Source: Terriglobia bacterium (GTDB lineage Bacteria; Acidobacteriota; Terriglobia; 2-12-FULL-54-10). From it: 64,000 nucleotides of DNA. The notes under the pieces are model-generated. The model saw only the letters and a program-made list of their open reading frames with translations, did no database searches and was not told where the DNA came from. Each line of letters opens with the position of its first letter. The stretch's first letter is position 1. Made by a program: the position numbers and the translations under genes. Positions 6,789 to 48,702 of the stretch are shown here, piece by piece. The DNA is taken from positions 320,001-384,000 of the forward strand of contig CAXVYR010000003.1 in NCBI GenBank assembly GCA_963666975.2, in the 5' to 3' direction.

Positions 6789-9700
6789 ATCACGACTGTA
6801 GCGGGTACGACATGGATCTTCCGGGGCGACGGCGGTCCGGCGATCGATGCGCCGCTGGGACGGGTTGGGGGAGTCGCGGTGGACCCGTCCGGTAATCTGT
6901 TCGTGGCGGATTCTGGCAACCACCTGGTGGTGAAGATTTCTCCCACGGGCATTCTCACCGTAGTGGCGGGAAACGGATTCTATGACTTTTCCGGAGATGG
7001 CGGGCCGGCCCGCAGTGCCTCACTGGGTGAGCCGAACGACGTTGCAATGGACGCCGCAGGCAACTTGTACATCGCAGACTCCGGCAACAGTCGCATCCGC
7101 AAGGTCAGCCCCGACGGGATTATCACCACCGTGGCGGGCAACGGGGAATACGATTTTTCCGGGGATGGCGGCCCGGCCACCAGTGCCTCCCTGAATTTTC
7201 CCCGGGCTGTAGCGGTGGACGCGGCCGGCAATCTCTACATCGCTGACACTGAGAACCACCGCATCCGCAAGGTCAGCCCCGACGGCATTCTCACCACCGT
7301 GGCCGGGGATGGGTTTACGGACAGTTTCGGGAACGGGCGGTATGCGGGCGACGGGGGCCTGGCCATCAACGCCTCGCTCAATCTTCCAGAGGACGTGGCG
7401 GTCGATGCGGCCGGCAACCTCTACATCGCCGACACGGAGAACCACCGAATCCGCATGGTCAGCACCGAGGGGATTACCTCAACGGTAGCGGGCAATGGAG
7501 ATTTAGATTTTGCCGGTGACGGCGGCCCAGCCAGCAGCGCCTCTTTGTACAATCCCGCCGGCGTGGCGGTGGATTCGGCGGGCAACCTGTATATCGCCGA
7601 CACCTTCCACAACCGCATCCGCAAGGTCAGCTTTCTAGGGGATATCACCACCCTGGCCGGTAATGGGATGGGAGCTTCTCCTTTTCCGGGGATGGGGGGC
7701 CGGCTGCCAGCGCCTCGCTGGGAGACCCGGAGGGTGTGGCGGTGGATGCGTCCGGCAACCTCTATATTGCGGACACGCGGAACCTTCGCATCCGCAAGGT
7801 AAGTTCTTCCGACGGGACCATTAGCACCGTGGCTGGCAGCGGTCAGTTCAAATTCGCGGGCGACGATGGTCCAGCCACCAGCGCCTCCTTGAACAACCCC
7901 AGCAGTGTGGCGGTGGATTCGTCCGGGTACCTGTATATCGCAGACGAGTTTAACAACCGCATCCGCAAGGTCAGCCCCGGCGGGATCATCACCACGGTAG
8001 CTGGCGAGGGGATGTTCGGCTTCTCCGGCGATGGCGGGTCGGCTACCAGTGCCAGGCTGGATAGCCCGAAGGGTGTGGCTCTGGATGCAGCCGGGAACCT
8101 TTATATCGCCGACACGGACAACGCCCGCATCCGCAAGGTCAGTCCCGACGGAATCATCAACACCGTGGCTGGCGGGGGAGAGATTTTTCCCGGCAATGGC
8201 GATGGCGGGCCGGCCACCAGCGCCAGTCTGGATTCTGCCGTCGGTGTAGCCGTGGATACGGCCGGCAATCTCTACATTGCCGAACGTGGCAGCGCCCGGA
8301 TTCGCAAAGTTAGTTTTGTAGGGATCATCACCACAGTAGCTGGCAACGGGACGTTCGGCTTTTCCGGGGACGGCGGTCCGGCCACCAGTGCCCAACTGGA
8401 TTTTCCCGTTGATGTAGCGGTAGACGCGGCTGGAAACCTGTACATTGCTGACACCGATAACCATCGCATTCGCAAGGTCGATTCGGGCGGGATCATCACC
8501 ACCGTGGCTGGCAACGGAGTTGACTCCTTTTCCGGAGATAGCGGACCCGCTACCGACGCCTCTATAGATTTGCCCTCCGGGGTGGCCGTGGATGCAGCGG
8601 GCAACCTGTTTATCAATGACACTTATAACTTCCGGATCCGCAAGGTCGATTCCAGTGGGATGATCACCACCGTGGCCGGAGGCGGAGAGGATTTTGGGGA
8701 TGGGGGGCCAGCTACCAGCGCCGTGCTCGATTTTCCCTTTGATGTTACGGTTGATGGCTCAAACAACCTATACATCGCCGACGCCGGCGGCGACCGGATT
8801 CGCAAGGTTTTGGCCATCGCTCCTCCTTTCTCGGTTGCTCCCGCAATTCTGAGTTTCACGGCACCAGCCGGTACGCAGATACTCTCTCCTCAACAGATTA
8901 CCGTTTCCAGCAGCGCCTTCGGTCTGCTGTGGAGCGCGCAGGAATCGACGGTAACCGGCGGCGGTTGGCTAGCCCTTTCTCCTGCCTCCGGCTCGGCGCC
9001 GGGCATTATAGACGTTTTCGTGAACGCGGCCAGCTTGACTCCGGGGACCTACGCCGGCGCGGTGACGGTGGAAGCGCCGGGAGCTTCTCCCTCGACTCAA
9101 GCCGTGGCGGTGGAGCTAACGGTGACGGCGGCGGCGGCGGCACAACTGGCTGTGGAGCCTGCGGCGATGACGTTTGAGGCCGCTTCCGGGTTCGGCAACC
9201 CGGCTGTGCAGGAGTTGCGCATCGGCAACGCCGGCGGCGGGACGCTCAACTGGACGGCGCAGGCCTCGACGGTCGCGGGCGGCAACTGGCTGAATGTGTC
9301 GGCAACGTCCGGGACAGCCTCGGCTGGCTCGCCGGCTATGGTAGCGATCAGCGCCAATGTAGCCGGGCTGGCAGCGCCTGCGGTGTATTCCGGCTCGATC
9401 GTGGTGGACGGAGGAAGCAGCGGGACGAAGACGGTGGCGGTGACATTGCTGCTGACCCAGGCGACACAGACGATCCAGCTCAGCCAGAGCGGGCTGCTGT
9501 TCACGGGAGTGGAAGGCGGAGGAGTGTCGCCGGTGCAAACCTTCGGGATTGCGAACGCGGAACAGGGCACGATGAACTGGACGGCGCAAGCGACGACAAT
9601 CTCGGGAGGCAACTGGCTGACGGTTTCCCCGATGAGCGGCAGCAGCGTGGCAGGGACGGCGGAGGTGCCGCGCGTGGAGGTCAGAGCGAACGCCAGCGGG

Positions 9701-11251
9701 CTGAGCGCGGGGCAGTACGGCGGGCTGATTCAGATCGACGCGCCGGGAGCGAACAACGCGCCGCGGTTTGTGAGCGTGACGCTGAACGTGCTGGCGGCGG
9801 GGAGCAATCCGGGGATTCAGGCGAGGCCGAGGGGATTGATCTTCGTGCGGCAGGCGGGGACTTCCTCGCCGGGCTCGCAAACGGTGCAGGTGGCGACGGC
9901 GGCTGCGGGCAGCCTGGAAGTGGTGGCAAACCCGTCCACATTCCAGGGCGGGAACTGGCTGGAGGCGGTGCCGCGGAACGTGACGTTCGCTGCGGGGCAG
10001 CCGAGGACGATCACGGTGCAACCGAAGCTGGGGACGCTGGCTGCGGGGGAATACTTCGGGGCGTTGACGCTGCTGTTCAGCGACAGGACGTCGCAGACGG
10101 TGAACGTGTTGTTTGTGGTGACGCCGGCAACGACGACACTGTCGGAAGTCGAACCGTTGCGCTCGCTTGACGGCGCGGCGCAGCAGCATTGCGTGGCGCA
10201 GCGGCTGTTTACGACGGGGAGAAGTCTGGGAAGCAATTTTGCCTCGCCGGTGGCGTGGCCGAGCCGGATCGAGGCGCAGGTGAAGGATGACTGCGACAAC
10301 CTGGTATCGGATGCGGCGGTGGTGGTCAGTTTTTCCAACGGCGATCCGCCGCTGGGGCTGGTTCCCCTGGGCCGGGGACTGTATGAAGGCACGTGGCGTC
10401 CGGCGCAAAACGGTTCGGTACGAATCACGGTGCGTGCCGAGCGGACGGCGCTGACGGCGGCGGAGGCGGTGCTGGACGGTCAGGTGACGGACAATCCGGC
10501 GGCTCCGGCGCTGTTTGCGGGTGGAATCGTGAATGCGGCGAGTTTTGCTCCGAACGAAGCGCTGGCGCCGGGCAGCATCGTCTCGGTGTTTGGGCGAAAC
10601 TTGGCCGAGGGGCTGAACCTGGCGACCGAGTTGCCGCTGAGCAAAAGGTTGGGCGGGGCGACGCTGGTGGTGGGCGGGATCGAGCAACCGCTGTTTTTCT
10701 CGAGCGAAGGACAGATCAACGCGCAACTGCCGTTTGATCTGACGCCGAACAGCCGGCCGCAGGTGGTGGTGCGGACGCAGCGGGGAGGCGGAGCGGAAGT
10801 GATCGGGGTGCCGGAGCCGATCACGATCGCGGTGGCGCGGCCGGGCATCTTTGCGCTGAATGCGGCGGGCACGGGGCAGGGGGCCGTTCTGCTGGCGAAT
10901 TCGGACGTGATCGCGGCTCCGGTTGGAAGCATACCGGGGCGGGCGGCGCGGCCGGCCAACCGCGGGGAGTTTCTTTCGATCTTCTGCACCGGACTGGGAG
11001 CGGTAACGAACCCGCCGGCGAGCGGAGCCGCGGCGGCAGGCGATCCGCTGTCGGAGACCATGGCGGCACCGAGCGTAACGATTGACGGCGTTCCGGCGAC
11101 GGTGATATTCTCCGGGCTGGCGCCGGGCTTTGTGGGGCTGTATCAGGTGAACGTGCAGATTCCGTCAGGAGTGGAACCGGGACCGGAAGTGCCGCTGGTC
11201 TTGTTCCAGAACGGCGTGCCCTCCAATACCGTCACTGTCGCCGTGCAGTAG
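6789..11251 (+). pseudogene. Large NHL (teneurin-like) repeat protein with BACON-like domains and Solibacter-type (TIGR03437-like) C-terminal domain; 5' end removed by IS6, frameshift near 7670-7700
   Basis: Many GDGGPA...VAVDAAGNLYIAD...RIRKV repeats; GGNWL-V-P domains; VNAASF...APGSIVSVFG...GLAPGFVGLYQVN tail; starts mid-repeat at the IS6 end. Confidence 0.88.
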
Positions 11252-11334
11252 TTACTTCGAGAAGTTAAACGGCCAACCGGACAAGTGCCCTTGTTTCGCG
11301 CAAATCGCAGCGACAAGGACGTCACCTCTCGATG

Positions 11335-12448
11335 ACAGGCAGCGGTGGAGGCTGGGAGGAACTCGGCCGATTGATCGTAAAGGTCTCCTCCAACCCTTCG
11401 CGCAAGCTGGCGGCTGCTGCCGGATGATCGCACTCGATCATCCCAGCGAGCTTTTTTATGCGCACGATGCCTTCCTCGGTTGGGGCAATCGCCAGGCGGC
11501 CGGATCAGCGACCGCACCTGTCGCCGCATTTTGTCGCCCTTTGGTAACCGAGCCACGTTGCGCAGCTTATGAGTACGGCAACGCTGCACCACTGATTGCT
11601 GCCTACTTCCTCGATCCGCGGGGCGCTTTGGCGCCGTCGATCAAACAGATAGCGCTGATCCGTGCGCAGACCTTGCGGCGCAGGCGGGTGAGAAGGTCTT
11701 TCCGCAGCGGCGTTTTCGGTCGCGCCCAGTTGAATCCCCAGCAATGCTTGCGGCCCTGCTGTCCACGCCCACGGCGCTGATGACGTGGTGGGAGCCGAAC
11801 CGCATTTCCTTCGCCAGAATCTCGACCTCCTCCCAGCGCCGCGCCAACAGTTCTTCCAGCCGCCGCGCTCCTTGCTCGGCCGCTTCCCGGCTCACCTGAG
11901 ACTTCGACACCCCAACTGTTGGCCATCTCCGGGATCACCTCGCGGTAGTTCCGCGTCGAAACCCCCAACAGTGCCTCGAACATCTCCTCGCCCGTCTTCT
12001 CGCTTTTCCGCGCTTTAGGCCGGCACCGCTTCTTCCCCTCCGCCCTTCCGGCGCACCGGGGCCGAGCAGCTGGCGATCGGCCAGTTTCATCAATTGCCGG
12101 CCATGCCAGCGCACCTCTCCGCTCGCCTTCCCGGGACTCTTTGGCCCCGCGATTTGCTCTGCGCTCATGCTCAGAATCGTTTCAATCAAACCTCGCCCGG
12201 CCCGATCAATCACCTCATCCACCGCCAGACGCGCCTCCGTGATCAGATCCACCACCGGCAACAGCATCTGTCCGTTGGTTTGGCAAAACTTCTGGATGGT
12301 TTCTTCGGCTCCCTTGGAACCCAGTTCCAAAACGTGATATTTTCCCTTCATTCGGCGGTTCTCCTTCTATAGGATTTAGGCTTGGCCCGATTCTATTCGA
12401 TTCGGGCCGAACCGCCGTTCAACCTTCAACTATGTATGGGACACCCTC
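11335..12448 (-). mobile_element. IS256-family element, degenerate/truncated copy of the element at 61264-62712
   Basis: Near-identical to the 61264 copy at the left end and 5' coding region, then many small deletions; right end missing. Confidence 0.9.
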
Positions 12449-12723
12449 AAGTTAAACGGCCAACCACAAGTGCCCTTGTTTCGCGCAAATCGCAGGACAA
12501 GGACTCACCTCGGCCGCCACTTGGCGACTACACAGGACCTATCCGGGGAAAAGCGGCCAAACTCCATTCAAACCAAGTGCTTGCAGCAGCCTTTCCTTCG
12601 CCGAAACCCAATTGATCGTCCCGTTATTCGGCCAATCGTCTCGGCAATTCTTTGCAAGGCGCTCCCGATCAACGCTAACTACTAGTCAGGGGGTTATTTC
12701 CCACAACGCCGTTTTCCAGTTTC
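12449..12723 (-). repeat. Dispersed non-coding repeat, copy with ACGGC(C/G) core sites at both ends
   Basis: 12520-12723 is the reverse complement of about 36815-37035 (for example gctgctgcaagcacttggtttgaatggagtttggccgc). Confidence 0.85.
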
Positions 12724-12796
12724 CGAGTCGCCGACCATAATATCCCGGAATGGGTCTGTTGCCGACGCACTCGGGCACTATCCCGGATTTCCTTTT

Positions 12797-13072
12797 TGGA
12801 CGTTCCCCCCTCCCTGCTTCCTTTATGGAAGTTTCGTCGGCAACCTTCTGTCCAACGTTAATATTGATGGGAGTTCGAGCGTCAACCTTCCAGAGGTGTA
12901 AACCCATTGGTGAGAGCCAAAAACAGGGATTTCAGTTTAGGTCTGACCTTACGTGATATGGGACAGGAGGAGAATGGAATAAGTTATTTACCTTCAGTGG
13001 GCAGGCGGGGAAACTGACTTTCACTTCCAGCTTCGTGGACGTTCCCCCCTCCCTGCTTCCTTTACTGGAAGT
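12797..13072 (+). repeat. 36/37-bp direct repeat pair TGGACGTTCCCCCCTCCCTGCTTCCTTTA(C)TGGAAGT
   Basis: Copies at 12797-12832 and 13036-13072 differ by one inserted C. Confidence 0.9.
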
Positions 13073-23148: not shown

Positions 23149-23613
23149 GTCAGGTCGCCACGCTTATTGGCTGGAGATACGCCAGAGTCTACCACGGCAA
23201 TAGCTCATTCCGGCTTCCGAAGCCCGCTCTGAGCTTCCCGCGCTTCTTCGCATTCGGCTCCTTGTCGTGCTCCTTCTTAATCAGCTCCGCGGCTTTGGTG
23301 AGGTTAGTGGTCAATTTCCAATTCTTCTCTCAGCCTGTTCTTTCTTCCTTCGTCCGCATCTTCAAAAGCTTGAGGCAACGTCACAATCCTCATTTCCAAT
23401 ATTTCGGTAGCGCGACGGATTGCCCATAATACAGGGAGCGTGCCAAGAAACACCGCAAGAGCCATTTCCCCAAAACGTCATAACTACCTCCATTCTCTTA
23501 CTGCCAGCCTCACTGCCGGCGCGGCTTGATTGTTGACGGGATTTGCCGAGAGACTACCACGTCACCGGCCTATTACTGCCAGCCAGAAAAATTAGCCCAG
23601 GCCGAAAAAGAGC

Positions 23614-23641
23614 TTGACATTATGAGACCCTAGAATATCAT
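23614..23641 (+). promoter_or_regulatory. sigma70-like promoter (TTGACA-16 bp-TATCAT), near-leaderless for the HTH gene
   Basis: Perfect -35, with the ATG 7 nt after the -10. Confidence 0.55.
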
Positions 23642-23648
23642 AGTGCCT

Positions 23649-23891
23649 ATGAGCCCTATTTCGACACTTGAAGCGGCAAAGAAGGGCGGGGTTAGCAAGG
23701 CGACGCTGGAAAGGTGGTTGGCCCAGGGCAAAATTAAAGCTCCGAAGCCGCTCCGTGTAGGGCAAAAGGTGTTCCGCCTCTGGACCGACCAAGATATTGA
23801 GCGAGTGAGGCGGCACAAAAAGAAGACGTACTGGAAGGGCCGAGGCCCAAAGCCGAAGGCGGAAGGGCCGAAGCCGAAGGCCAAACGATAA
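23649..23891 (+). CDS. Small HTH DNA-binding protein (excisionase/MerR-like)
   Basis: STLEAAKKGGVSKATLERWLAQGKI...RLWTDQDIERV with a basic tail. Confidence 0.75.
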   Translation: MSPISTLEAAKKGGVSKATLERWLAQGKIKAPKPLRVGQKVFRLWTDQDIERVRRHKKKTYWKGRGPKPKAEGPKPKAKR

Positions 23892-24027
23892 CAAACGCTC
23901 CGCGCCCGGTGCAGACACACCGAACGCAGAGCTAACCACAGCAACCTGCAAGGAGGTCGCAATGGCTGCAAGTATCGTATCACCCACCGAACAATTCCAG
24001 CCGATTCCGAGTCCCGCTACAGCTTCC

Positions 24028-24618
24028 ATGAAAAAGGCCGCCCTCTACGCACGGGTGAGCACCCAAAATGGCCAGAACCCGGAGATGCAACTTAACGAAC
24101 TGCGCTCCTACTGTGAGCGCAGAGGATTGGAGATCGCCGGGGAGTACGTGGACAACGGTGTGAGTGGCGCGAAGGAGCGCCGCCCGCATTTGGACCGTCT
24201 GCTTGCCGATTGCCGACGTAGGATGGTGGATGCGGTTGTGGTGTACCGCTATGACCGCTTTGCCCGGAGCCTGCGCCAACTTGTGAACGCGTTGGAAGAA
24301 TTTCGAGCCTTGGGGATCGACTTCATCAGCTTGCATGAGGGGGTGGACACCAGCACGCCCAACGGCCGGCTTGTGTTCGGGATCTTCGGCAGCATCGCGG
24401 AATTCGAGCGGGAATTGATTCGGAATCGCGTGAAGTCTGGTCTCGCCCACGCCAAAACCAAGGGAGTGAGGCTGGGAAGACCCCGCGTGTATGTGGACCG
24501 CTTCAAGATTGTCCATCTCCGCGATCAGGGACTTGCATGGGCCATGATTGCGAAACAGTTAGGGATTGGTGAAGGAACCGTGCGAAGGGCCTTCCCAAGA
24601 GCGTCTATTTCCAATTAG
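24028..24618 (+). CDS. Small serine recombinase (resolvase/invertase family)
   Basis: YARVSTQ...Q, DNGVSG...RP, DRFARS, IAEFERELIRNR, LGRP + C-terminal HTH. Confidence 0.93.
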   Translation: MKKAALYARVSTQNGQNPEMQLNELRSYCERRGLEIAGEYVDNGVSGAKERRPHLDRLLADCRRRMVDAVVVYRYDRFARSLRQLVNALEEFRALGIDFISLHEGVDTSTPNGRLVFGIFGSIAEFERELIRNRVKSGLAHAKTKGVRLGRPRVYVDRFKIVHLRDQGLAWAMIAKQLGIGEGTVRRAFPRASISN

Positions 24619-24639
24619 CCAACATTGCATCCAGTAGAA

Positions 24640-24695
24640 CGCAGGATAGGTAAACACAACGCCGTTTATCGTGATCTATTCCGGGAGTGCCGTTC
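24640..24695 (+). repeat. Repeat-family core site (ggtaaacacaa CGCCGT ttatcgtgatc) plus flank
   Basis: Aligns with 33153-33206 and 28476-28503. Confidence 0.75.
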
Positions 24696-25728: not shown

Positions 25729-25766
25729 TATGGCCTCCCGGCAGTGGCAATGATACACCCGTGAGT

Positions 25767-27002
25767 CTAGGGCCTGCGCCCGCGGCCCCGGTTCGAGTTC
25801 GGTCCCCGAATCGAGTTCGATCCCCGAATCGAGTTCGGTCCCCGGTTCGAGTTCGATCCCCGAATCGAGTTCGGTCCCCGGTTCGAGTTCGGTCCCCGGT
25901 TCGAGTTCGGTCCCCGAATCGAGTTCGATCCCCGGTTCGAGTTCGGTCCCCGAATCGAGTTCGGTCCCCGGTTCGAGTTCGGTCCCCGAATCGAGTCCCG
26001 GCCCCGATTGGAATCCCGGCGAGGGTCGCCACTCCTGATCTGGCCTCGCCCCCTCCTCGCATGACCTCCCCCGATGACGATTCGAGGGCTGATGAATCGG
26101 GGGCGGTAGGTGTGCGGGCGATGGATGTGCGGGCGATAGATGCGCGGGGACGGACGAATCACGACGGTGGGTCCGTACACGTGGCGGGGATACGGATCGT
26201 AGTATCCGTAGGGATATCCGTAGTATCCGTAGGGATATCCGTAAGAGAAATGGATGGAGGGTCGGCTCTTGTAATGCCGGCGCGCGGGAACGGCCCGATG
26301 CGTGCGACCGCGCCGCTGGAGCGCCACCGGCTCGTAGTCTTCCTGCCGGACGAGCTGGAAGGCTGCTGCCGAGGAGGCCGTCTCGACCGTGAGCGGCGAC
26401 AGTGTGCGGAAGGTGAGCGTAGACTCGGGATAGACTTCTGTGGGCTTGCCACGGGTGGCCAGAACCCCGATGGTCGAGGCCGCCGCTCCCGCGATCGCTC
26501 CCATGCCTGCGCCAATCCCGCCGTCTACGGCTGCGCCGATCGCCGCTCCGATTCCCGTGGCGGTGCCGATCGCGACTACGTCATTCCCGACAGAAGTCGG
26601 CCCCGCATGCTCGATCCATTCTGTAACCACGAGCAGTTGCGTGCCGTCGACGAGGCTGATCTCGGTCAGCTCCAGACCCAGACTCGACGTTCCGGATCGC
26701 CGCCCGGCTTTCTGCGCCACGACGATGCGTCCCTCCACGGTCTGGCCACGGTGGGCGATGACGAACCCGTTGGCCACCAGCGGCTGCGCCAGCGAGCCGA
26801 TGAAGTAATCGCCCGGCAGATTGTGGTCGCTCGAAATTGGCTGATTCACTCGAATCGAAATCCAAGAGCCGGCCGGCAAGTTCAACTGGGGCGGGGGACT
26901 GCTCCAGCCTACTTGCTGCGCGTTTGCGGACACGGCTCCATTCCAGAGAACCGCGACTGCCAGTGCAAACGAACCGATCGTTATCTTGTGTTTGTTTCCC
27001 AT
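25767..27002 (-). CDS. Secreted hypothetical protein with glycine-zipper-like segment, YGYP repeats and C-terminal RGPNS(N/I) repeats
   Basis: RBS aaggag, signal peptide, LPAGSWISIRVNQPISS beta domain, low-complexity tail. Confidence 0.75.
   Translation of the reverse strand: MGNKHKITIGSFALAVAVLWNGAVSANAQQVGWSSPPPQLNLPAGSWISIRVNQPISSDHNLPGDYFIGSLAQPLVANGFVIAHRGQTVEGRIVVAQKAGRRSGTSSLGLELTEISLVDGTQLLVVTEWIEHAGPTSVGNDVVAIGTATGIGAAIGAAVDGGIGAGMGAIAGAAASTIGVLATRGKPTEVYPESTLTFRTLSPLTVETASSAAAFQLVRQEDYEPVALQRRGRTHRAVPARRHYKSRPSIHFSYGYPYGYYGYPYGYYDPYPRHVYGPTVVIRPSPRIYRPHIHRPHTYRPRFISPRIVIGGGHARRGRGQIRSGDPRRDSNRGRDSIRGPNSNRGPNSIRGPNSNRGSNSIRGPNSNRGPNSNRGPNSIRGSNSNRGPNSIRGSNSIRGPNSNRGRGRRP
25786..26019. 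repeat. 18-bp tandem repeat, about 13 units (CCCCG[GT/AA]TCGAGTTCG[G/A]T)
   Basis: 11 regular plus 2 degenerate units read directly. Confidence 0.95.
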
Positions 27003-28361: not shown

Positions 28362-28512
28362 TCAGGAGCGCCTCGGTGCAGTGCATTGCTAGTGCAACTA
28401 CTTGGTTTGAATGGGATTCGGTCGTGTTTCGCCGGATAGGTCCTCACTAGTCGCCTAGCGTTTACCTATCCGGCTCGCAGGATAGGTCGCCACTACGCCG
28501 TTACTCATTACC
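28355..28512 (+). repeat. Dispersed non-coding repeat, internally deleted copy ending in a CGCCGT core site
   Basis: Shares agcgttgat..ggagcgcctcggtgc, acttggtttgaatgg and ccggataggtcct...gtcgcctag.gtttac with 36855-37044. Confidence 0.8.
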
Positions 28513-32239: not shown

Positions 32240-32279
32240 AATCTACCTAAGATCCGCAGTCGCGCAATAGATGAACTGT

Positions 32280-32828
32280 ATGACGCTCACCGCAACCATT
32301 TACAACTTCGACATCGAACTCGCAGACACCGACCGCCACGTCTACGAGTCGCTCGCGCTGCGGGTCGCGCGTCATCCCTCCGAAACCGAAGAGTATCTGG
32401 TGGCGCGCCTGCTCGCGTACCTACTGGAGTTCGCGGAGGGCATCGAGTTTTCGCATGGCCTGTCGGACCCTGAAGAGCCGACGATCGCGGTCCGAGATCT
32501 GACCGGAGGGATCAAGGCGTGGATTGACATCGGCACGCCTGATGCGGCGAGGCTGCACAAAGCGTCGAAAGCCGCAGACCGCGTCGCCGTATACACGCAC
32601 AAGGACCCGACGCAGTTCCTAAAACAGCTCGCCGGTGAAAGAATTCACCGCGCCGAGGCGCTGGAGCTGTACGCGATCGATCGTGCGATGGTCAGTGCGC
32701 TCGTCGCGCGCCTGGAGCGGCGCGTCGCCTTCAGCCTGACAGTCACCGACCACGAGCTGTACTTGTCGATCGGCACCGACAACATTACGGGCGCCGTCGT
32801 GCGGCTAAATGGTGTCCCGAAAAGGTGA
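32280..32828 (+). CDS. yaeQ: YaeQ family protein
   Basis: MTLTATIY...ARHPSET..YL..RLLAY, FSHGLSDPEEP, WIDIGTPD. Confidence 0.9.
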   Translation: MTLTATIYNFDIELADTDRHVYESLALRVARHPSETEEYLVARLLAYLLEFAEGIEFSHGLSDPEEPTIAVRDLTGGIKAWIDIGTPDAARLHKASKAADRVAVYTHKDPTQFLKQLAGERIHRAEALELYAIDRAMVSALVARLERRVAFSLTVTDHELYLSIGTDNITGAVVRLNGVPKR

Positions 32829-32970: not shown

Positions 32971-33015
32971 TTCCCAAGCTGGACGTCGTGGGTTCGAGTC
33001 CCATCTCCCGCTCCA
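32971..33015 (+). other. 3' half of tRNA-Gly(CCC): integration att core
   Basis: ttCCCaagctggacgtcgtggGTTCGAGTcccatctcccgctCCA; no D-arm or 5' acceptor strand upstream. Confidence 0.88.
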
Positions 33016-33152
33016 ACTTTCATACACTTACGGCCCACCCCCAGGGTCGTGACTCCAAAAGACTCCATTCGACAGCTTTTCGGTGACATTCCTTCCGCCA
33101 CATTCTGGGGAATAACCCTCTTCGGGAAATCTTCCTCGCTGGAACAAATTAC

Positions 33153-33223
33153 CAGATAGGTAAATCCTTCGCCGTTTATCGCGATCTATCCCGGCGAGTG
33201 CCGTTCGCCCCTAACTTCCCAGA
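33153..33223 (+). repeat. Repeat-family core site (ggtaaatcctt CGCCGT ttatcgcgatc) plus flank
   Basis: Aligns with 24645-24695; its distal cgttcgcccctaacttcccagaa is inverted at 360-382. Confidence 0.75.
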
Positions 33224-33567
33224 ACTAGACTTATGGGAAGTAATCCGGGACTTGCCTTCCTCGCCCGCACTCGGAGCCCGGCTACAGGCTCAGCAAACCC
33301 CTACTAACAATTGCTTTACTGTCCCACCTCGTGTAATCTCTCGCTGATATTTCCATCCGAGCGGGGGCAAAAATGCGGCAGTTTCCCAGGGTAAAAAGCT
33401 TCCTTTGGACCGCCATACCACACCAAATTAGCCCGGGCGATTTGCGCTTGACCCGGCAGGGCAGGCGGCATAGGTTTTCGGGTGAGCGGAAGCTCAAAAG
33501 GATATTCCGCATATACTAGGTAATCTGTCCAACATCCAAAACAACAAAATGAACTGCGGAGGAGATC

Positions 33568-36500
33568 ATGGCCAAAAGATGGAGTTGCCGGGCGGGTTGG
33601 GCAATGGGGCTTTTGCTCTGTCTAAGCCTGCAAACTTCGGCGCAGGACAACGACGCTCGCCTCGCCGGGACCGTCCGGTCGCAATCGGGAGCGCGGCTGG
33701 GGCTAGTGAGTGTTCTCGTCGATGATCCCGCCTCGGGCGTCCGCCGGACTCTCCAGACCGATTCGGAAGGCCATTACCATGCACCGGGTCTCCCACCCGG
33801 CAACTATCGAGTGACGGTTTCGCTTTCCGGTTTCTTCACACAAGTCCGGGAAGGGGTGGAACTGGCGACGGGCCAGGTGGCAGAGGCGAACTTTCTGCTG
33901 GAGCCAACCGGAGAGGCCTCCGCGCCGGAGGCGCCGACAGCGGGGAGTGCGCCGGCCGGGGTGATAGATGAATCGCAACTGGTGGGGCTGCCGATGAACG
34001 GGCGTAGCTATACGCAACTGGCGACGCTGGTAGCGGGGGTGAGCGACCCGACGGGCGGAGGCAGGCAGGGGGGCACGGGCAGCAGCATTACGGTCTCCGG
34101 CGGGCGCGGGGAGTGGAATAGTTTTTTGATGGACGGGACGGACATCAACGGCACGGACAATCGAGTGCCGCGCAGTGCCGCTGGAGGGCAGTTGGGAGCC
34201 GACGCCGTGCTGCAGGTGCAGATATTCTCCGCCAACTACGGGGCACAGTACGGGCGTGCTGCCGGTGGGGTGATGAATGCAATTACCCGCTCGGGGAGCA
34301 ACGAATGGCATGGGGGCTTGTTCGAATTTTTCCGCAACAGCAAGCTGGACGCGCGCAATTTTTTTGATCCGTCAGAGCCCCCGCCGTTCAAGCGAAACCA
34401 GTTCGGAGCGACCGTTACGGGACCCATTGTCCAGGACAAAACCTTTTTTATGGCGAGCTTCGAAACCCTGCTCAACCGGTTGACGGAAACTATTGTGCTC
34501 TTCGTCCCCGACAACGAGGCACGTCTCAGGGCCGTGCCCAGCGTGGCGCCCTATGCGAACCTCTATCTGCCCGCGCAGTTCCCGGTTCTGAGAGAGGGGA
34601 AACCCACCGGTGTGGCGGAGAACCGTTCGCCGGCGACCCAGCCAACAGATGAGTACTTTTTCGTGGCCCGGGTAGACCGGCAACTCGGGGACCGAGATGC
34701 CTTGTTCGCCCGCTATACCTTTGATGATGCCACTCAAACCAGCGTTGGTACTTCACCTATGTTTCCCACGGTGACCGAGAGCCGACAGCAATATGTGACC
34801 CTGACGGAGACGCATTTCTTTTCTCCGGCCCTGATCAGCACCGCGCGGCTCAGTTACACCCGGCCCGTGACGCAGTTTCGCATGGAACCCGCTGTTGAGA
34901 TACCCCGCTCGCTGTTTTACGTGCCCAGCTCTCCGCAAATTGGCAATCTTCTGGTCCCCGGATTGACGATTTTGGGTCCGAATCCCCAAGCTCCCTGGGC
35001 CCGGGTCTTGAATTCCTATCAGGTTGGCGAGGATGTTATTTACAGCCACGGGGCCCATACCTGGAAGGCCGGGATGTTGATGGAACGCTTTCAGTGGAAC
35101 GTGTTCGACAGTATGTCCAAGGGAGCGCGCTGGGCCTTTAGCAGCCTGGATGACTTCCTGCAAGGGGGTCCTGAGGGCACCGCCTTGCTCGTGGCCCTTC
35201 CTGGGTCGGACTCCTACCGGCATTTCCGGCAGACACTGCTCGGTTTTTATTTGCAGGACGACTACAAGGTCCTTCCGGAGCTGACCTTGAATCTGGGCCT
35301 GCGGTATGAATTCACTACGATGATTCATGATAGGCAGGGGCGAACCGTGCACCTGGTAGATGAGTTGCGGGATTCGGAGCCGCAGGTAGGCCCGCCGATG
35401 AAGCGCAACCCCTCCCTGCTTAATTTCGCACCCCGCATCGGTCTGAGTTGGTCTCCGGGGAACGATCCCAGCATGGTGATCCGGGCCGGGGTCGGCATTT
35501 TCCACAATCAGATCATTGAATACTCGGTGGACGGACTTCGGAACACGGCTCCCTTCTATAATGTGGTGGTCCTTCCCAATACGGACACCTCCGGGAGAAT
35601 TCCAAATTCCCCGGCATTTCCGGATGCCGTGGCCGTTGCCGGGGACGCAAAGGCTTCGCAGCTCCGCATCTTTGAATACAACGACCCCAAAACGCCCACC
35701 GTCTATCGGTACAGCTTGTCCCTGGAAAAGGAACTATTTCCTGGTTTGCGGGTGGGGGCCACTTATGTCGGGGCTCGGGGCAACCACTTGCTGCGGACGA
35801 TTGAAACCAACCAGTTCCCCTTCCCTGAGCGCCAGCCGGATGGGAGGCTGTTTTTCCCGAAGGACCCGGACCCGGACCCGAGGCTGGGACCGGACAATTC
35901 GATGAACCCGGCTTTTGGCAGCATCCAGAAAGTTCTGACCGATGCGCAATCTTTCTACAATTCCTTTGTGGTCTCCGTAAACCGTCGTCCCTGGAGGGGC
36001 CTGACCTTGGGTGCGAACTACACTTACTCCAAGAGCGTGGACGATGCCTCTTCGGTCGGCGGCGGCCTCGGTGGAGCACCGCAGCAGTACGGCCTGGACC
36101 GGAAGTTGGACCGAGCCCTTTCCTCTTTTGATATTCGCCACCGTTTCTCTCTGCGGTACTTCTACAGCCTCCCGTTCGGTTCCGGCCGGCGATGGTTGGA
36201 CTCGGGCTGGCTGGCGCACCTTCTCGGGGGCTGGCGGGTGGGAGGCATTCTGAGGACGCGCACCGGCCAGACGGCCGATGTGCGGTACAGCATCCCCGCA
36301 GAGGGCTTTCTGTTTGTCTCGCAGCGGCCGGATCTGAAACCGGGGCACAGCAACAACCCTACCAAGGGCGTAACTGCCGGTTGCGAGGGGGTCGAGGCTG
36401 GCCAAGAGCTGGGAGGGCCGGACCTATATTTTGACCCTTGCGTCTTCGAGCCTCCCGAACCGGGATTCATCGGGAACGCCGGCCGCCTCATCCTGATCGG

Positions 36501-36744
36501 ACCTCGCGTGGTGAACATGGACCTTTCCCTGCAAAAGGAATTTGCGATTGATTCCCAGCGCAGGCTTCAATTCCGGGCGGAGTTCTTCAATCTTCCCAAC
36601 CACACAAACTTCCGGCCACCGCAGAGGGGAAGCGCGAGCGTCTTCCGCGGTGCGGGTGGGATAGTCAACCCCAGTGCCGGTAGATTGAGGTCCACAGCCA
36701 CTACCCCCCGGCAGATACAGTTCGCCCTACGGCTCTCCTTCTGA
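33568..36744 (+). CDS. TonB-dependent receptor, Oar-like, with N-terminal carboxypeptidase regulatory-like domain
   Basis: Signal peptide, LPMNGRSY, RSGSNEWHG..FEFFRNSKLDARNFF, RNQFG, QFRAEFFN..NHTNF, C-terminal RQIQFALRLSF. Confidence 0.93.
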   Translation: MAKRWSCRAGWAMGLLLCLSLQTSAQDNDARLAGTVRSQSGARLGLVSVLVDDPASGVRRTLQTDSEGHYHAPGLPPGNYRVTVSLSGFFTQVREGVELATGQVAEANFLLEPTGEASAPEAPTAGSAPAGVIDESQLVGLPMNGRSYTQLATLVAGVSDPTGGGRQGGTGSSITVSGGRGEWNSFLMDGTDINGTDNRVPRSAAGGQLGADAVLQVQIFSANYGAQYGRAAGGVMNAITRSGSNEWHGGLFEFFRNSKLDARNFFDPSEPPPFKRNQFGATVTGPIVQDKTFFMASFETLLNRLTETIVLFVPDNEARLRAVPSVAPYANLYLPAQFPVLREGKPTGVAENRSPATQPTDEYFFVARVDRQLGDRDALFARYTFDDATQTSVGTSPMFPTVTESRQQYVTLTETHFFSPALISTARLSYTRPVTQFRMEPAVEIPRSLFYVPSSPQIGNLLVPGLTILGPNPQAPWARVLNSYQVGEDVIYSHGAHTWKAGMLMERFQWNVFDSMSKGARWAFSSLDDFLQGGPEGTALLVALPGSDSYRHFRQTLLGFYLQDDYKVLPELTLNLGLRYEFTTMIHDRQGRTVHLVDELRDSEPQVGPPMKRNPSLLNFAPRIGLSWSPGNDPSMVIRAGVGIFHNQIIEYSVDGLRNTAPFYNVVVLPNTDTSGRIPNSPAFPDAVAVAGDAKASQLRIFEYNDPKTPTVYRYSLSLEKELFPGLRVGATYVGARGNHLLRTIETNQFPFPERQPDGRLFFPKDPDPDPRLGPDNSMNPAFGSIQKVLTDAQSFYNSFVVSVNRRPWRGLTLGANYTYSKSVDDASSVGGGLGGAPQQYGLDRKLDRALSSFDIRHRFSLRYFYSLPFGSGRRWLDSGWLAHLLGGWRVGGILRTRTGQTADVRYSIPAEGFLFVSQRPDLKPGHSNNPTKGVTAGCEGVEAGQELGGPDLYFDPCVFEPPEPGFIGNAGRLILIGPRVVNMDLSLQKEFAIDSQRRLQFRAEFFNLPNHTNFRPPQRGSASVFRGAGGIVNPSAGRLRSTATTPRQIQFALRLSF

Positions 36745-36808
36745 GCCTTCGACGGAGTGTGTGCGAAATACCCACCGGCTCAATTCTAGGATGGTCTCTC
36801 ACACGGAA

Positions 36809-37047
36809 GTTGGACATAAACGGCGTTGTGAGAAATAACCCCTGATTAGTAGTTAGCGTTGATTGGGAGCGCCTCGGTGCGGAGAGCTGCGGAACGGGGG
36901 AGACGATTGGCCGAGGCGTTTTCGATAACGGGACGATAAGTCAATTGGGTTTCGGCGAGGGAAAGGCTGCTGCAAGCACTTGGTTTGAATGGAGTTTGGC
37001 CGCGTTTCCCCGGATAGGTCCTGCCTTGTCGCCTAGTGTTTACTAAT
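36809..37047 (+). repeat. Dispersed non-coding repeat starting with dif-like site gttggacataa ACGGCG ttgtgagaaat
   Basis: Inverted homolog of 12520-12723; direct homolog of 28355-28468. Confidence 0.85.
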
Positions 37048-38644: not shown

Positions 38645-41600
38645 ATGGCTCTGATTCCGACTCTTGGCTTCTGGCTTCTGGCTCCCGCTCTTTCATCCGC
38701 CCAGGGAGTCACTCCCCAAAGCGTCATCACCACGGTGGCGGGCAGCTCCTGGGTTTTTCGCGGCGACGGCGGCCCGGCGATTGATGCGCCGCTGGGAAGG
38801 CTCGAAGGAGTTGTAGTGGACTCCATTGGCAATGTGTTCGCGGCTGATAGTGAATCACCGCGTGGTGAAGATTTCCGCCACTGGCATTCTGACCGTGGTG
38901 GCCGGTAACGGACTTAGCGGCTTTTCTGGCGACAATCACCGCGTGGTGAAGATTTCCGCCACTGGCATTCTGACCGTGGTGGCCGGTAACGGACTTAGCG
39001 GCTTTTCTGGCGACGGAGGCCCAGCCACCAGTGCCAGCTTTTTTTTTATCCAAGGTGTGGCGGTGGATGCGGTCGGCAACATTTACATCGCCGACTCTAG
39101 CGTAGACCGCATCCGCAAAGTCAACCCGGACGGGACTATCACCACCGTGGCAGGCAATGGGAGCCGAGGCTTTTCTGGTGATGGCGGCCCGGCCACTAGC
39201 GCCTCACTAAGGAGCCCTAGGGGCCTGGCGGTGGATGCGGTTGGGAACCTCTACATAGCCGACGCCTACAATAACCGCATCCGCAAAGTCGGCCTCGATG
39301 GGATTATCTCTACCGTAGCCGGGAGCGGTCCCACCGGGTTTGGAAACGGAGGCTTTTCTGGCGATAGTGGGCCGGCCACCAGCGCCTTGTTAAATCTTCC
39401 CTTTGATGTTGCCTCCGATGTGGACGGAAACCTCTACATCGCCGACAGTAATAACCGCATCCGAAAGGTAAGCCTCGACGGGATGATTTCCACAGTAGCT
39501 GGCAACGGGAATTTCGGCTTTTCCGGCGATGGCGGTCCGGCCACCAGCGCCTCACTAAGGAGCCCTGAGGGCATGGCAGTGGATGCGGTTGGCAACCTCT
39601 ATATTGCTGATAGTAGCAACCTCCGCATCCGCAAAGTCAACCCCGACGGCATTATCACCACCGTGGCGGGCAATGGGACAAACTCATTCTCTGGCGACGG
39701 GGGACCGGCCACTAGCGCCTCAATGCAAATCATTTCCGGAGTCGCAGTCAATAGGGCGGGCGACCTTTATATCGCTGGTACTTTCAGCCACCGCATCCGC
39801 AAGGTCAGCCCCGACGGCATTATCAACACGGTGGCCGGTAACGGACAGTTCAGATTCGCGGGTGACAGCGGGCCGGCCACCAGTGCCTCGTTAAACTTGC
39901 GTTGCTGTGGTGTTGGTGTGACGGTGGATGCGGCGGGCAACCTTTATATCGCTGATGGCGACAACTTTCGAGTTCGCAGGGTAAGCCCGAGCGGCATAAT
40001 TACCACCGTTGCGGGCAATGGAATTCGTGGTTTCTCCGGTGATGGCGGCCCAGCCACCAGCGCTTTACTCAATCGTCCCCATGGTGTGGCACTGGATGCG
40101 GTTGGGAACCTCTATATCGCTGATGATTCCAACCGCCGCATCCGCAAAGTCAGCCCCGACGGCATTATCACTACCGTGGCAGGCAATGGGACATCCTCTT
40201 TCTCTATCCGAGACGGCGAACTAGCTACCACCGCTCAAATTGCTCTCCCAGCTGCTGTGGCAGTGGACGCGGCCGGCAACCTTTACATCGCCGCCAATAA
40301 TAACCGCATCCGCAAGGTCAGCCCCGACGGCATTATCACCACCATAGCCGGCGGCAATGGTTGTGAGCCGCTCCTGGAAGATTGCTTTTTGGGCGATGGC
40401 GGTCCGGCAATCAGCGCCTCATTGAATTCACCCAAAGGTGTGGCGGTAGACTCAGCCGGCAACCTTTACATCAGCGACACTTGGAACAACCGCATTCGGA
40501 AGGTTACTCCCGACGGGATTATCAACACCGTGGCCGGTAGCGGCGCGGTGGGTCAGAACAACGGATGCTTTTCCGGCGACGACGGTCCGGCCATCAATGC
40601 CTTGATAAATCCGGGTTGCTGTGGTGGTGGAATAGCGGTGGATGCTCTTGGCAGCCTCTACATCGCTGACACCAATAGTAACCGCATCCGCAAGGTCAGC
40701 CCCGACGGGATAATTACTACTGTGGCAGGGAATGGGCAATCTGGCTTTTCTGGCGATGGCGGCCCGGCGACCAATGCTTCGCTGAATTTTCCCGAGGATG
40801 TGGCGGTGGACGCGGTTGGGAACCTCTACATCGCCGATAAAAGTAACGACCGCATTCGCAAGGTCCTGGCAACTCCGTTATCCTTCACCGTCTTCCCGCA
40901 GAATCTGAACTTCTCGGCCCAGACAGGCGCCCCTGCGGTCGCAGCGCAGCGCATCACCGTCTCCAGCGCCGTTGCTGGCCTCAGGTGGAGCACGCTGGCT
41001 TCCACCCAAACCGGCGGCAATTGGCTGTCTGTTTCGCCGTCGGCTGGAACGGCCCCGAGCACCATTGACGTGAGAGTGGATGTCGCCAGTCTGTCGGCAG
41101 GGATTTACCAGGGCACGGTGACGGTCGATGTGCCTGGGGCTTCTCCTCCGACCCAAGCCGTAAGCGTTGAGTTGACGGTTACGCCCGCCTTGCCTGCCGA
41201 GCTTGCGGTCGAGCCGTCCTCGCTCACCTTGGAAGGCTTATTTGGGGATGGCAGCCTCCCAATAGAGACGCTGCGCATCAGCAATGCCGGCGGCGGGACG
41301 CTCGACTGGACGGCGCAGGCCAGCACAGTTACCGGCGGCAACTGGCTGAGCGTGTCTCAGTCTTCCGGCCCGGCCTCCGCCGCCTCCCCGACGGAAGTCC
41401 AGGTCGCCGCCAATTTGATTGGTCTTGCGCCTGCCGTGTATTCAGGCTCGATTGTGGTTGAGAGCCCGGAAAGTGACCCGAAGACTGTGGCCGTGACTTT
41501 GCTCGTCTCCGAGGTGACGGCTACCATTCTAGTAAGCCAGAGCGCGCTGTTGTTCACGGGGGTAGAGGGCGGCAGAATCGTTCCTTCGCAGACCTTTGGG

Positions 41601-43286
41601 ATTTTGAACACGAAACCGGGCACCATGAACTGGACGGTGGGAGCCAGTACTCTCGGAGGAGGTAACTGGCTGACCGTGTCCCCAGAGAGCGGCAGCAGCA
41701 CGGCAGGCTCGCTAGAGGTTCCACTAGTGGATGTGGGACTGAACGTCGGCGGGCTCGGTGCCGGGCAGTACAGCGGTCAGATTCGTGTCAGCGCGCAGAC
41801 GGCAAACAATTCCCCGCAGTTTGTGACCGTGACCCTGAACGTGTTGCCGGCGGGTAGCATTCCACCGGTGGTGGTGCGGCCAACCGGGTTGATCTTCGTC
41901 CGGCAAGCCGGGAGTTCCTCGCCGGGCTCGCAGACGGTGCGGTTGGCCACAGCGGCCCCCGGCGGTCAGGAGGCTGTGGCCAGACCAATCACCTTTCAAG
42001 GAGGCGAATGGCTGGAAGCGCTACCTTCCAACTTGGTGTTTTCCCCGGACGAGCCGCGAAACATCGTCGTACAACCCACGCTGGGCTCATTGCCCCCAGG
42101 GGAATACTTTGGGGCGTTGACCTTGGGCTTCCTGAGCGACCGCAGTTCCCAGAATGTGAATGTGCTGTTCGTGGTGACTCCTGCTGGGGCAGCGCCTGCC
42201 GGGGTTCGCACATTGGATGGAAACGGCCGTGCCGCCCAGCAGGAGTGCGTGGCCCAGCGCCTGTTTGTCACAGGCCGCAGCCTGGGGAACAATTTCGCCT
42301 CGCGGGTAGCTTGGCCTAGTCGGATTGCGGCACAGGTCAAGGATGACTGCGACAACACGGTTCACAATGCCACCGTAGTTGCCCGCTTCTCGAACGGTGA
42401 CCCGCTGCTGGCGCTGGTGGGCTTAGGCAATGGGCTCTACGAAAACACTTGGCGACCGGTAAACGCCGGCTCGGTGAGAATCAACGTGCGCGCCGAGCGG
42501 GCCTCGCTGGTTCCGGACGAGGTGCGGGTGGACGGTCAGGTGACGGGTAATACCGCAGCTGCTCCTGCCCTGTTTACCGGAGGTATCGTCAACGCGGCCA
42601 GTTTTGCTCCCGGTGAAGCCTTGGCGCCGGGCAGCATCGTCTCGGTGTTTGGGAGCAACCTGGCACAGGGAGTGAATCTTGCGGAACAGGTGCCGCTGGG
42701 GAATACGCTGGGCGGAACTACGCTAATCGTCGGAGGCCTGGAACAGCCATTGTTCTTCTCTAGCGGCGGGCAGATAAATGCCCAGCTTCCTTTTGATCTG
42801 ACGCCGAATAGCCGCCCGCAGATGGTGGTGCGGGTCCAGCGGGAAGGCGGCGCGGAAGCCATTAGCGTGCCGGAGACGATCACGATAGCGGAAGCGCGGC
42901 CCGCGATCTTTACCACTAACCAGCAAGGCACCGGACAAGGAGCGATCCTGAACCAGGACTTCTCGCCCAACTCGGCAGAGAACCCGGAAGCGGTGGGCAA
43001 TGTGATTCAAGTATTCTCCACTGGGCTTGGCAACACGGACCCTAGTGTGCCCTCAGGCCAGCTAGCGCCAAGCCAAGAACCGTTGGCACGGGTGCTGGTT
43101 CCAGTGCAGGCACAGATTGGCGGGCATTCGGCGACAGTGCATTTCGCTGGACTAGCACCCGGCTTTGTGGGCCTCTACCAGGTAAACGTGCAGATTCCAG
43201 CAGGGGTGACGCCGGGGCCAGAAGTGCCGCTTGTCTTGTTCCAAAACGGTGTACCCTCAAACACCGTCACTGTCGCCGTGCAATAG
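38645..43286 (+). CDS. Large secreted NHL-repeat protein with BACON-like and Solibacter-type C-terminal domains; frameshift at about 38851 (paralog of 6789-11251)
   Basis: Signal peptide plus ITTVAG...GDGGPAIDAPLG in one frame, continuing in ORF 38826-43286; same C-terminus VPSNTVTVAVQ. Confidence 0.88.
38853..39014 (+). repeat. Exact 81-bp tandem duplication inside the NHL gene
   Basis: 38853-38933 equals 38934-39014. Confidence 0.92.
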
Positions 43287-48648: not shown

Positions 48649-48702
48649 ACTCCCGTGTAACGGCGAAGGGTAGAGTAATCCTGCCCGCCGGATTAGAAAG
48701 CG
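48649..48702 (-). repeat. Diverged repeat-family core site with TAATCC-8-GGATTA palindrome
   Basis: Reverse complement tttctaatccggcgggcaggattactctacccttcgccgtta aligns with 28461-28502 and 33155-33177. Confidence 0.6.

Follow-up and report, generated by a model that had tools for sequence, protein, structure and literature searches.

The closest described parallels to the locus considered here are the dif modules of Acinetobacter, for which the passages of PMC13141974 that deal with them report alternating module types, gene-less and mixed modules, and the replacement of a single module through a cointegrate; the Acinetobacter pdif sites, as described in parts of PMC6449649, fall into two spacer clusters and share a conserved XerD arm. 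We analyzed a 64,000-nucleotide stretch of a Terriglobia bacterium genome (assembly GCA_963666975.2, contig CAXVYR010000003.1, positions 320,001 to 384,000; hereafter the window), in which a gene for an outer-membrane receptor of the TonB-dependent type lies between two inverted 28-bp sites with the spacer ACGGCG. An earlier note on this DNA had described the arrangement as a pdif-module-like cassette, an invertible or exchangeable receptor module bounded by these two sites and the cleanest instance of its repeat system. We found that the receptor module has other bounds, and we consider it probable that the receptor is the cargo of a module-exchange system with two non-interchangeable classes of 28-bp site and a recombinase of its own. 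What we observed directly is that the sites exist, that their classes alternate, that site halves are reassorted at the spacer and that the intervals between sites follow a grammar; from these observations we infer the activity of the system and its enzyme.

The system resembles the Acinetobacter dif modules, as far as the relevant sections of PMC13141974 and PMC6449649 describe them, in its 28-bp sites of 11-6-11 build (two 11-bp arms around a 6-bp spacer), inverted bounds, alternating types and two spacer clusters, and also in its gene-less and mixed (CD-like) modules, its putative two-crossover replacement and the insertion sequences (IS) that appear to target its sites. It differs from them in that the sites are chromosomal, number 78 in one genome and belong to the phylum Acidobacteriota, and in that a solitary recombinase gene forms a module of its own and is the sole occupant of one module type. 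Unlike the Acinetobacter pdif sites, those found here have arms without the host XerD consensus and GC-rich spacers that are nearly fixed in two classes. We found no description of this system in a literature search that left out supplements and covered subscription literature thinly. The relevant sections of PMC8138268 make no mention of Acidobacteria; in PMC3469429 and PMC3414803 the sections concerned count acidobacterial integrases or arrange them in networks, and sites do not come up. The system is apparently an undescribed variant of dif-module shuffling, and the receptor locus is one ordinary, perhaps fixed, instance of it.

Iterated profile scans of the 4.23-Mb genome (G000) gave 77 sites of 11-6-11 build, and one more was located by hand. 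These 78 sites comprise 39 with an ACGGCG-type spacer (class 1) and 39 with a GTCGCC-type spacer (class 2). The exact spacer is present in 32/39 class-1 and 26/39 class-2 sites, and the spacers are far more conserved than the arms. The sites are clustered, with 7.4% of the genome lying within 5 kb of one, and the class alternates in 46 of the 54 neighboring site pairs that are less than 8 kb apart.

The intervals between sites of different class follow a simple grammar. With arms named left and right by spacer direction, four types can be told apart among the 46 inter-class intervals, most of which are gene-less linkers. Inverse-orientation intervals, left-left or right-right, account for 26 of the 46. 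Twelve of the 13 left-left intervals exceed 300 bp, including the 3567 bp of the receptor, whilst 12 of the 13 right-right intervals measure 18-19 bp and the remaining one (1029 bp) contains only the recombinase gene. All 20 mixed intervals are short adaptors in direct orientation of at most 180 bp. Of the 33 inter-class intervals with a right arm inside, only the one around the recombinase gene is longer than 300 bp. Among the genes carried in left-left intervals are those for a dienelactone hydrolase, for amidohydrolases and for a PAS histidine kinase, as well as another receptor gene, which is split and belongs to the same Pfam family as ours. The PAS histidine kinase (C4:1235831-1238853) and amidohydrolases (C3:308293-313858) are held in sister modules whose 5' end is that of the receptor module; the kinase module has the same site order as the receptor module and related flanks at both ends. 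The same ends with different cargo were thus obtained, in the kinase and receptor modules, and the same cargo in a different place was not. An unusual accessory cargo, a methyltransferase with a full RpoD-type sigma-70 gene, occupies the left-left module L121:2911-6807 (C4:715130-721145). At C3:316081-316604 we noticed a class-1/class-2 pair duplicated in tandem, with a 376-bp module devoid of genes, as would be expected had a two-module circle integrated.

We confirmed for both 28-mers the coordinates, inverted orientation, common ACGGCG spacer and inward-facing ATAA arms claimed in the earlier note. The left site reads GATCGCGATAA ACGGCG AAGGATTTACC on the minus strand and the right site GTTGGACATAA ACGGCG TTGTGAGAAAT on the plus strand; the 10-mer ATAAACGGCG occurs three times in the window, compared to a mean of 0.1 and a maximum of 2 in 100 mononucleotide shuffles. 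The claim of one intact gene enclosed with its upstream region was also borne out, as the segment includes the whole 1058-residue open reading frame and 380 bp upstream of it. Two class-2 sites had been missed, one lying 27 bp inside the left class-1 site and the other 180 bp outside the right one. The order at the locus is therefore class 1 (33159, -), 27 bp, class 2 (33214, -), leader and gene, class 1 (36809, +), 180 bp and class 2 (37017, +). The receptor's own module is bounded by the class-2 site at 33214 and the class-1 site at 36809, one site per class, as are 12 of the 20 cargo-sized intervals in the genome, and the pair 33159/36809 is neither a unique nor the cleanest boundary. Counting 33159, the site at 36809 has four inverted ACGGCG partners within the window, the others being those at 12696, 24649 and 28485, and one direct partner at 48649. 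The inversion proposed earlier is one of several formal options at 36809.

The linkers beside the receptor module recur elsewhere. Among the ten intervals of the type found at 33187-33213, five measure 26-27 bp and all ten are shorter than 170 bp, and copies of the 180-bp linker (81-92% identity) lie at 12518-12728 of the window, C3:1176147, C4:721192 and C4:1238852. The pair at 28439-28512 is the empty form of the interval type that holds the recombinase gene elsewhere. The spacer GTCTAG of the 33214 site differs from GTCGCC by three changes and is unique among the 39 class-2 sites; the site may consequently have lost its pairing with canonical GTCGCC sites, and perhaps exchange at that end.

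Table 1. Features of the receptor locus and related sites (positions in the window)
Feature	Position	Strand	Score or remark
Shortened copy of the 180-bp linker between a class-2 site (12512) and a worn class-1 site (12696)	12512..12723	-	
Class-1 site (ACGGCG), further possible inverted partner of 36809	24649..24676	-	
18-bp linker flanked by a class-2 (+) and a class-1 (-) site	28439..28512		
Class-1 site (11-6-11, spacer ACGGCG)	33159..33186	-	28.9 bits
Gene-less linker, 27 bp, class-1 left arm to class-2 right arm	33187..33213		
Class-2 site, variant spacer GTCTAG, 5' boundary of receptor module	33214..33241	-	18.0 bits
Non-coding leader common to class-2 ends of other modules	33242..33409	+	72-91% identity over 30-170 bp
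Remnant of downstream end of an IS, presumably IS1380-type	33410..33509	+	14 genome copies
Outer-membrane receptor, TonB-dependent type, intact, 1058 residues, probable cargo	33568..36744	+	sole long open reading frame between the sites
Class-1 site (spacer ACGGCG), 3' boundary of receptor module	36809..36836	+	27.9 bits
Gene-less linker, 180 bp, class-1 right arm to class-2 left arm	36837..37016		
Class-2 site (spacer GTCGCC)	37017..37044	+	36.1 bits
Class-1 site (ACGGCG), direct repeat of 36809	48649..48676	+	

Comparison of the flanks of the sites points to reassortment of their halves. Among 741 same-class pairs in each class, 80 class-1 pairs (15 left only, 65 right only) and 86 class-2 pairs (50 left only, 36 right only) share just one 20-bp flank, many of them being copies of the same linkers and not independent events, whilst only 4 and 7 pairs, respectively, share both. 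Each of the four sites flanking the receptor shows such half reassortment. For 33159, four class-1 sites match its left half at 77-94% identity and its right half at 29-42%; 33214 has its left half in common with 7 further class-2 sites and its right half with 2; for 36809, three sites match the right half at 90-94% identity, and two of these differ in the left half; and the left half of 37017 is common to 6 other sites. The sites thus appear to behave like crossover points at which homology switches at the spacer. Together with the conserved spacers and the balance of the classes, this switch argues for past site-specific recombination and not for present activity.

The receptor itself matches the Pfam families OMP_b-brl_4 (E 2.9e-169), CarboxypepD_reg and TonB_dep_Rec_b-barrel. 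Its nearest solved relatives are siderophore receptors, the match being confined to the plug region, and a protein near the receptor carries a Solibacter C-terminal domain, which, like the mostly acidobacterial relatives of the recombinase described below, points to an acidobacterial host. The genome contains 35 related receptor loci, and only this one is flanked on either side by a family site at most 1 kb away; the site system is therefore not receptor-specific. The leader flank is common to 10 class-2 sites, at 6 of which the next gene points away from it. The relative G002 carries a leader 83% identical over 33239-33509 upstream of an amidohydrolase gene, and the site flank, leader and IS end all precede the amidohydrolase as they precede the receptor here. 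The IS end (33410-33509) follows a DDE_Tnp_1_4 transposase in G036, and we take its family to be IS1380; most of its 14 copies diverge immediately past the common end motif. The 5' junction of the receptor is this IS end and not a recombination site. From what we assume of IS1380-family features a promoter role for the IS end is plausible, and a scan of the leader and IS end for a consensus sigma-70 promoter found none.

Sites of 11-6-11 build are typical of tyrosine recombinases. The genome has 28 Phage_integrase matches, and our candidate among them is a lone, single-copy tyrosine recombinase of 316 residues encoded 39 kb from the receptor (C3:313984-314934); 44 bp separate the start of its gene from a class-1 site upstream, and 34 bp the stop from a class-2 site downstream. 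It scores 84.9 bits against PF00589 and is Xer-like, falling below the cut-offs for XerC, XerD and integron integrases. The R-K-H-R-H-Y positions, presumably the catalytic pentad, align with those of XerA (4a8e) and are intact. Two other enzymes came into view. A small helix-turn-helix gene and a serine resolvase gene, directly followed by a class-1 site, lie at 23592-24676 of the window; the resolvase (23962-24618) was set aside as the enzyme, having one site near it, and the 11-6-11 build suggests tyrosine recombinases. The remains of an unrelated, broken integrase, which two sites enclose in G002, were read as cargo.

Homologues of the candidate recombinase were found at 78 loci in a genome scan, mostly in Acidobacteriota; we used 65 near-full-length loci for flank counts and dropped 13 partial or interrupted ones. 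A symmetric, spacer-blind arm model picked an ACG-starting spacer upstream of 21/65 homologues and a GTCG-starting spacer on the opposite strand downstream of 16/64, compared to 2.4% and 1.4% of 2997 control windows. Tighter motifs were present at 22/65 upstream and 37/64 downstream flanks, compared to 0.45% and 2.8% of controls. In pairs of related recombinase modules chosen for a common inner side, identity just outside the sites was 0.25-0.37. A foreign class-1 model, built from the recombinase-flanking sites of other genomes with an anchor motif from this genome, placed 19 sites of our family in its top 30 and ranked 33159 and 36809 at 53 and 492 of 8,468,518 positions. A recombinase homologue (63%; 11959-12912) and three ACGGCG-spacer sites (1108, 4784 and 8831) occur on pACIX905 (L199, NC_015060.1), a conjugative plasmid of a cultured strain of Granulicella tundricola. 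The models found no site directly at the recombinase of pACIX905, where site-like 28-mers were noted by eye only, and gave no site hit at a Paludibaculum plasmid recombinase locus. Target sites typically adjoin recombinase genes of this kind, as stated in the section of PMC10250229 concerned.

In the mechanism that we propose, the 316-residue protein would act as a homomeric Xer-like recombinase that binds both classes and recombines matching spacers only. A module with one site per class could then neither excise nor invert by itself; it would move by two crossovers, one per class, via a cointegrate, or alternatively in a circle with a neighboring module between two direct sites of the same class. 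The receptor module (33214-36809) would have arrived by such an exchange, and its class-2 spacer would have drifted later to GTCTAG, possibly fixing the module. The 33159/36809 pair would be formally able to invert the adaptor together with the receptor module, and because the leader flips with the gene, such an inversion would shuffle DNA neutrally and switch nothing on or off. More tentatively, and with confidence that stops short of an even call, we put forward a wider picture of self-contained cassette exchange in Acidobacteriota: one homomeric recombinase, itself on a 1-kb module between two incompatible site classes, may, through double crossovers, swap modules that carry receptors, hydrolases or kinases among islands of the chromosome and conjugative plasmids, with sites targeted by IS110 and the receptor module locked by its drifted class-2 spacer.

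Several observations weigh against the module-exchange reading. The excess of hits at 17 bits or more in the genome over the block-shuffled genome (40 versus 0 for class 1, 38 versus 4 for class 2), which speaks for this reading, reflects coherence more than independent significance, the models having been trained on the sites that they score. Eight of the 54 neighboring pairs are of the same class, and the alternation p-value of 1.4e-7 is overstated, as many linkers are copies of one another; the copied linkers among the one-flank pairs belong here as well. The foreign class-2 model performed poorly, with 2 of its top 30 hits in the site list of the time and a score of -3.7 at 33214. A recombinase gene bounded by sites shows a module and not the enzyme itself. 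The recombinase family was found in 3 of 41 genomes, compared to 14 for the class-1 pattern, where many single hits stand at the level of the reversed control, and 6 for the class-2 pattern. The relative G009 (96% complete) has no recombinase match above 30% identity despite 12 class-1 hits, which share the module layout of our genome; either the gene was lost there, or it acts from passing plasmids, or another enzyme is responsible. At the receptor, the position of the 5' junction at the IS end means that the cargo joined its leader via that end, and therefore by another route of gene capture.

The same holds for mobility, which we assessed by comparing the assembled contigs of 4 of the 21 listed sequencing runs (X3, X6, X11 and X13). 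In contigs of X3 and X6, which come from two studies, 33159-33241 and 36809-36836 are both crossed in the arrangement of the reference. The contigs of the four runs, which drop rare forms, contained no strand-changing and no receptor-skipping joint at the sites, and the joints listed in them are best read as other repeat copies. There is thus no supporting evidence for current mobility of the receptor module, and no recombination event was seen. The search proposed earlier for the receptor with the same ends in a second context found only distant paralogues in 40 relatives; the nearest long matches there reach 63-66% at the DNA and at most 64% at the protein level, and a scan of receptor-bearing loci with an early model gave no site of at least 12 bits. 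Two other assemblies encode near-identical receptor proteins (1057/1058 residues). Downstream of one related receptor in G006 lies part of the 180-bp linker, and another related receptor, in G001, ends 66 bp ahead of a class-1 site. Among the flanking genes, recD2, a nuclease gene and yaeQ have separate matches in 11 of the 40 relatives, and the gene to the right of the module has none; no empty site could therefore be defined. A metagenome scan with the left half of 36809 found 3 contigs, two of them with further family sites, and no receptor in those examined.

We next weigh other explanations of the sites. The same module system could be served by host XerC/XerD, which would make these true pdif modules and the 316-residue recombinase a mere passenger. 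The genome has XerC- and XerD-like genes (C4:1261167 and C4:1823268, assigned by score and by sequence features that we take to mark them), and the 11-6-11 build is that of dif. We predicted a host dif with an AT-rich spacer at C3:603309-603336 (-), 30 kb from the cumulative GC-skew maximum at ~633.5 kb; it scores 11.2 on the spacer-blind arm model, within the range of the site family (10.4-22.3) albeit at its low end. Under the foreign class-1 model, which includes the spacer, it ranks below 2 million. The left class-1 site matches the predicted XerC and XerD arms at 5 and 2 of 11 positions and the right one at 4 and 7 (7 and 7 reversed), with 33214 an exception at 8 and 8. Across the family, only 9/78 sites match the XerD arm at 8 or more positions in their better orientation, and the inner ATAA is present in just 14/78 left and 10/78 right arms, whereas pdif sites conserve the XerD arm, according to the part of PMC6449649 that treats it. 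The same source describes two spacer clusters in Acinetobacter pdif, which together with the sites without recombinase in G009 fits the use of host enzymes. Against this, the recombinase gene is the sole gene seen in a right-right interval of this genome. Judging from these comparisons, the arms do not keep the host XerD binding sequence, a departure from pdif in the strict sense, and with a different candidate enzyme at hand we did not retain that label. We regard host XerC/XerD as unlikely to be the enzyme.

A still less likely explanation is that the sites are inert scars or selfish repeats, similar to repetitive extragenic palindromes (REP) or miniature inverted-repeat transposable elements (MITE), in a patchwork island in which the receptor came to lie between two of them by chance. 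It would account well for the predominance of gene-less linkers in a genome crowded with IS copies, for the single bracketed locus among 35 and for the lack of activity in the contigs of the four runs. It accounts poorly for homology that switches at the spacer, for spacers far better conserved than arms, and for two classes that are equal in number, alternate and bracket the recombinase gene across many genomes. An Rfam search matched only tRNA-Met and gave no structured-RNA family for the sites. Finally, a dedicated invertible switch or stand-alone receptor cassette at 33159/36809 is very improbable, since its identical, inversely oriented spacers around one gene, the inversions between such pairs reported for dif modules in part of PMC13141974 and the similar setting of yaeQ in G006 are outweighed by the class-2 site inside the pair, the four inverted partners of 36809 in the window, a leader that would flip with its gene and the absence of an inverted junction from the contigs of the four runs.

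Returning to the module-exchange reading, the observation in the earlier note was right and its module idea broadly right, in that the halves reassort at the spacer and the module type holds other genes elsewhere; the boundaries differ and the enzyme probably does too.

Integrons combine an IntI integrase with attI and attC sites. Like them, the system described here carries numerous gene-sized passengers and encodes a tyrosine recombinase whose gene has a site immediately upstream. Unlike them, its sites are short double-arm cores of two classes in both orientations, not same-direction attC hairpins, and its modules are scattered over several islands. An integron was rejected on the recombinase, which scores 48.2 bits against TIGR02249 over residues 229-300 (cut-off 265), and an attC array on the orientation and classes of the sites, the attC covariance model not having been applied. 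Shufflons and phase-variable invertible segments (Rci, Fim-type) provide a further comparison: several inverted sites with the same spacer could flip nested segments, as in shufflons, although flipping would swap no promoter or gene end here and a second orientation was not seen in the contigs. Similar to Cre/lox-type and engineered cassette exchange, as outlined in part of PMC10250229, there is one recombinase with sites beside its gene and there are two incompatible spacers; unlike Cre/lox, the sites have degenerate 11-bp arms and a 6-bp spacer instead of a 13-8-13 build, are natural and are repeated dozens of times, with a putative activity. The grouping of tyrosine recombinases used in the integron comparison is that of PMC8138268, which mentions Rci in the section concerned.

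Other features of the window and of related genomes deserve mention. The 3' part of a tRNA-Gly(CCC) gene lies at 32971-33016, 140 bp to the left of the first site; it shares 93% identity with the complete gene at C4:563267-563341 and is likely the attachment scar of a tRNA-integrating element. The yaeQ gene of G006 (C69; L126, L191) is 88% identical to the window copy at 32271-32828 and lies between two inward-facing class-1 sites with the spacers ACGCCG and ACGGCG. In G009, an element of the IS110 family has 12 matches (loci L178-L189, e.g. G009:C12:246636-247700); in 6 of 11 loci examined it sits 4 bases into the right arm of a class-2 site, whereas two further readable ends do not lie clearly at such a site. 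It looks like an element that targets the recombination-site family, and it has no match in our genome at E 1e-30. Paralogous NHL-repeat/BACON proteins, 70-80% alike in parts, are encoded at 6879-11251, where the gene is split into two open reading frames, and at 38826-43286, where an exact 81-bp tandem duplication occupies 38853-39014. Copies of a Mutator-family (IS256-type) element lie at 11329-12448 and 61264-62662, and the genome has dozens of identical ends; the copy near 12 kb has many small deletions and a duplicated target-like stretch of ~65 bp at its flanks. An 18-bp tandem repeat of ~12 copies (25750-26055) lies within an open reading frame with DUF1388 repeats.

What this locus adds is the module grammar, with its cargo-holding arm pair, a set of sister modules that have their ends in common with it, and a strain in culture on which tests can be made. 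If our reading is correct, the enzyme and its two natural, incompatible sites would make a ready-made tool for cassette exchange. The system would also represent a third route, beside integrons and the Acinetobacter dif modules, for the modular shuffling of accessory genes in a large and poorly cultured phylum, and it would help to explain the scattered, paralogue-rich content of TonB receptors and hydrolases.

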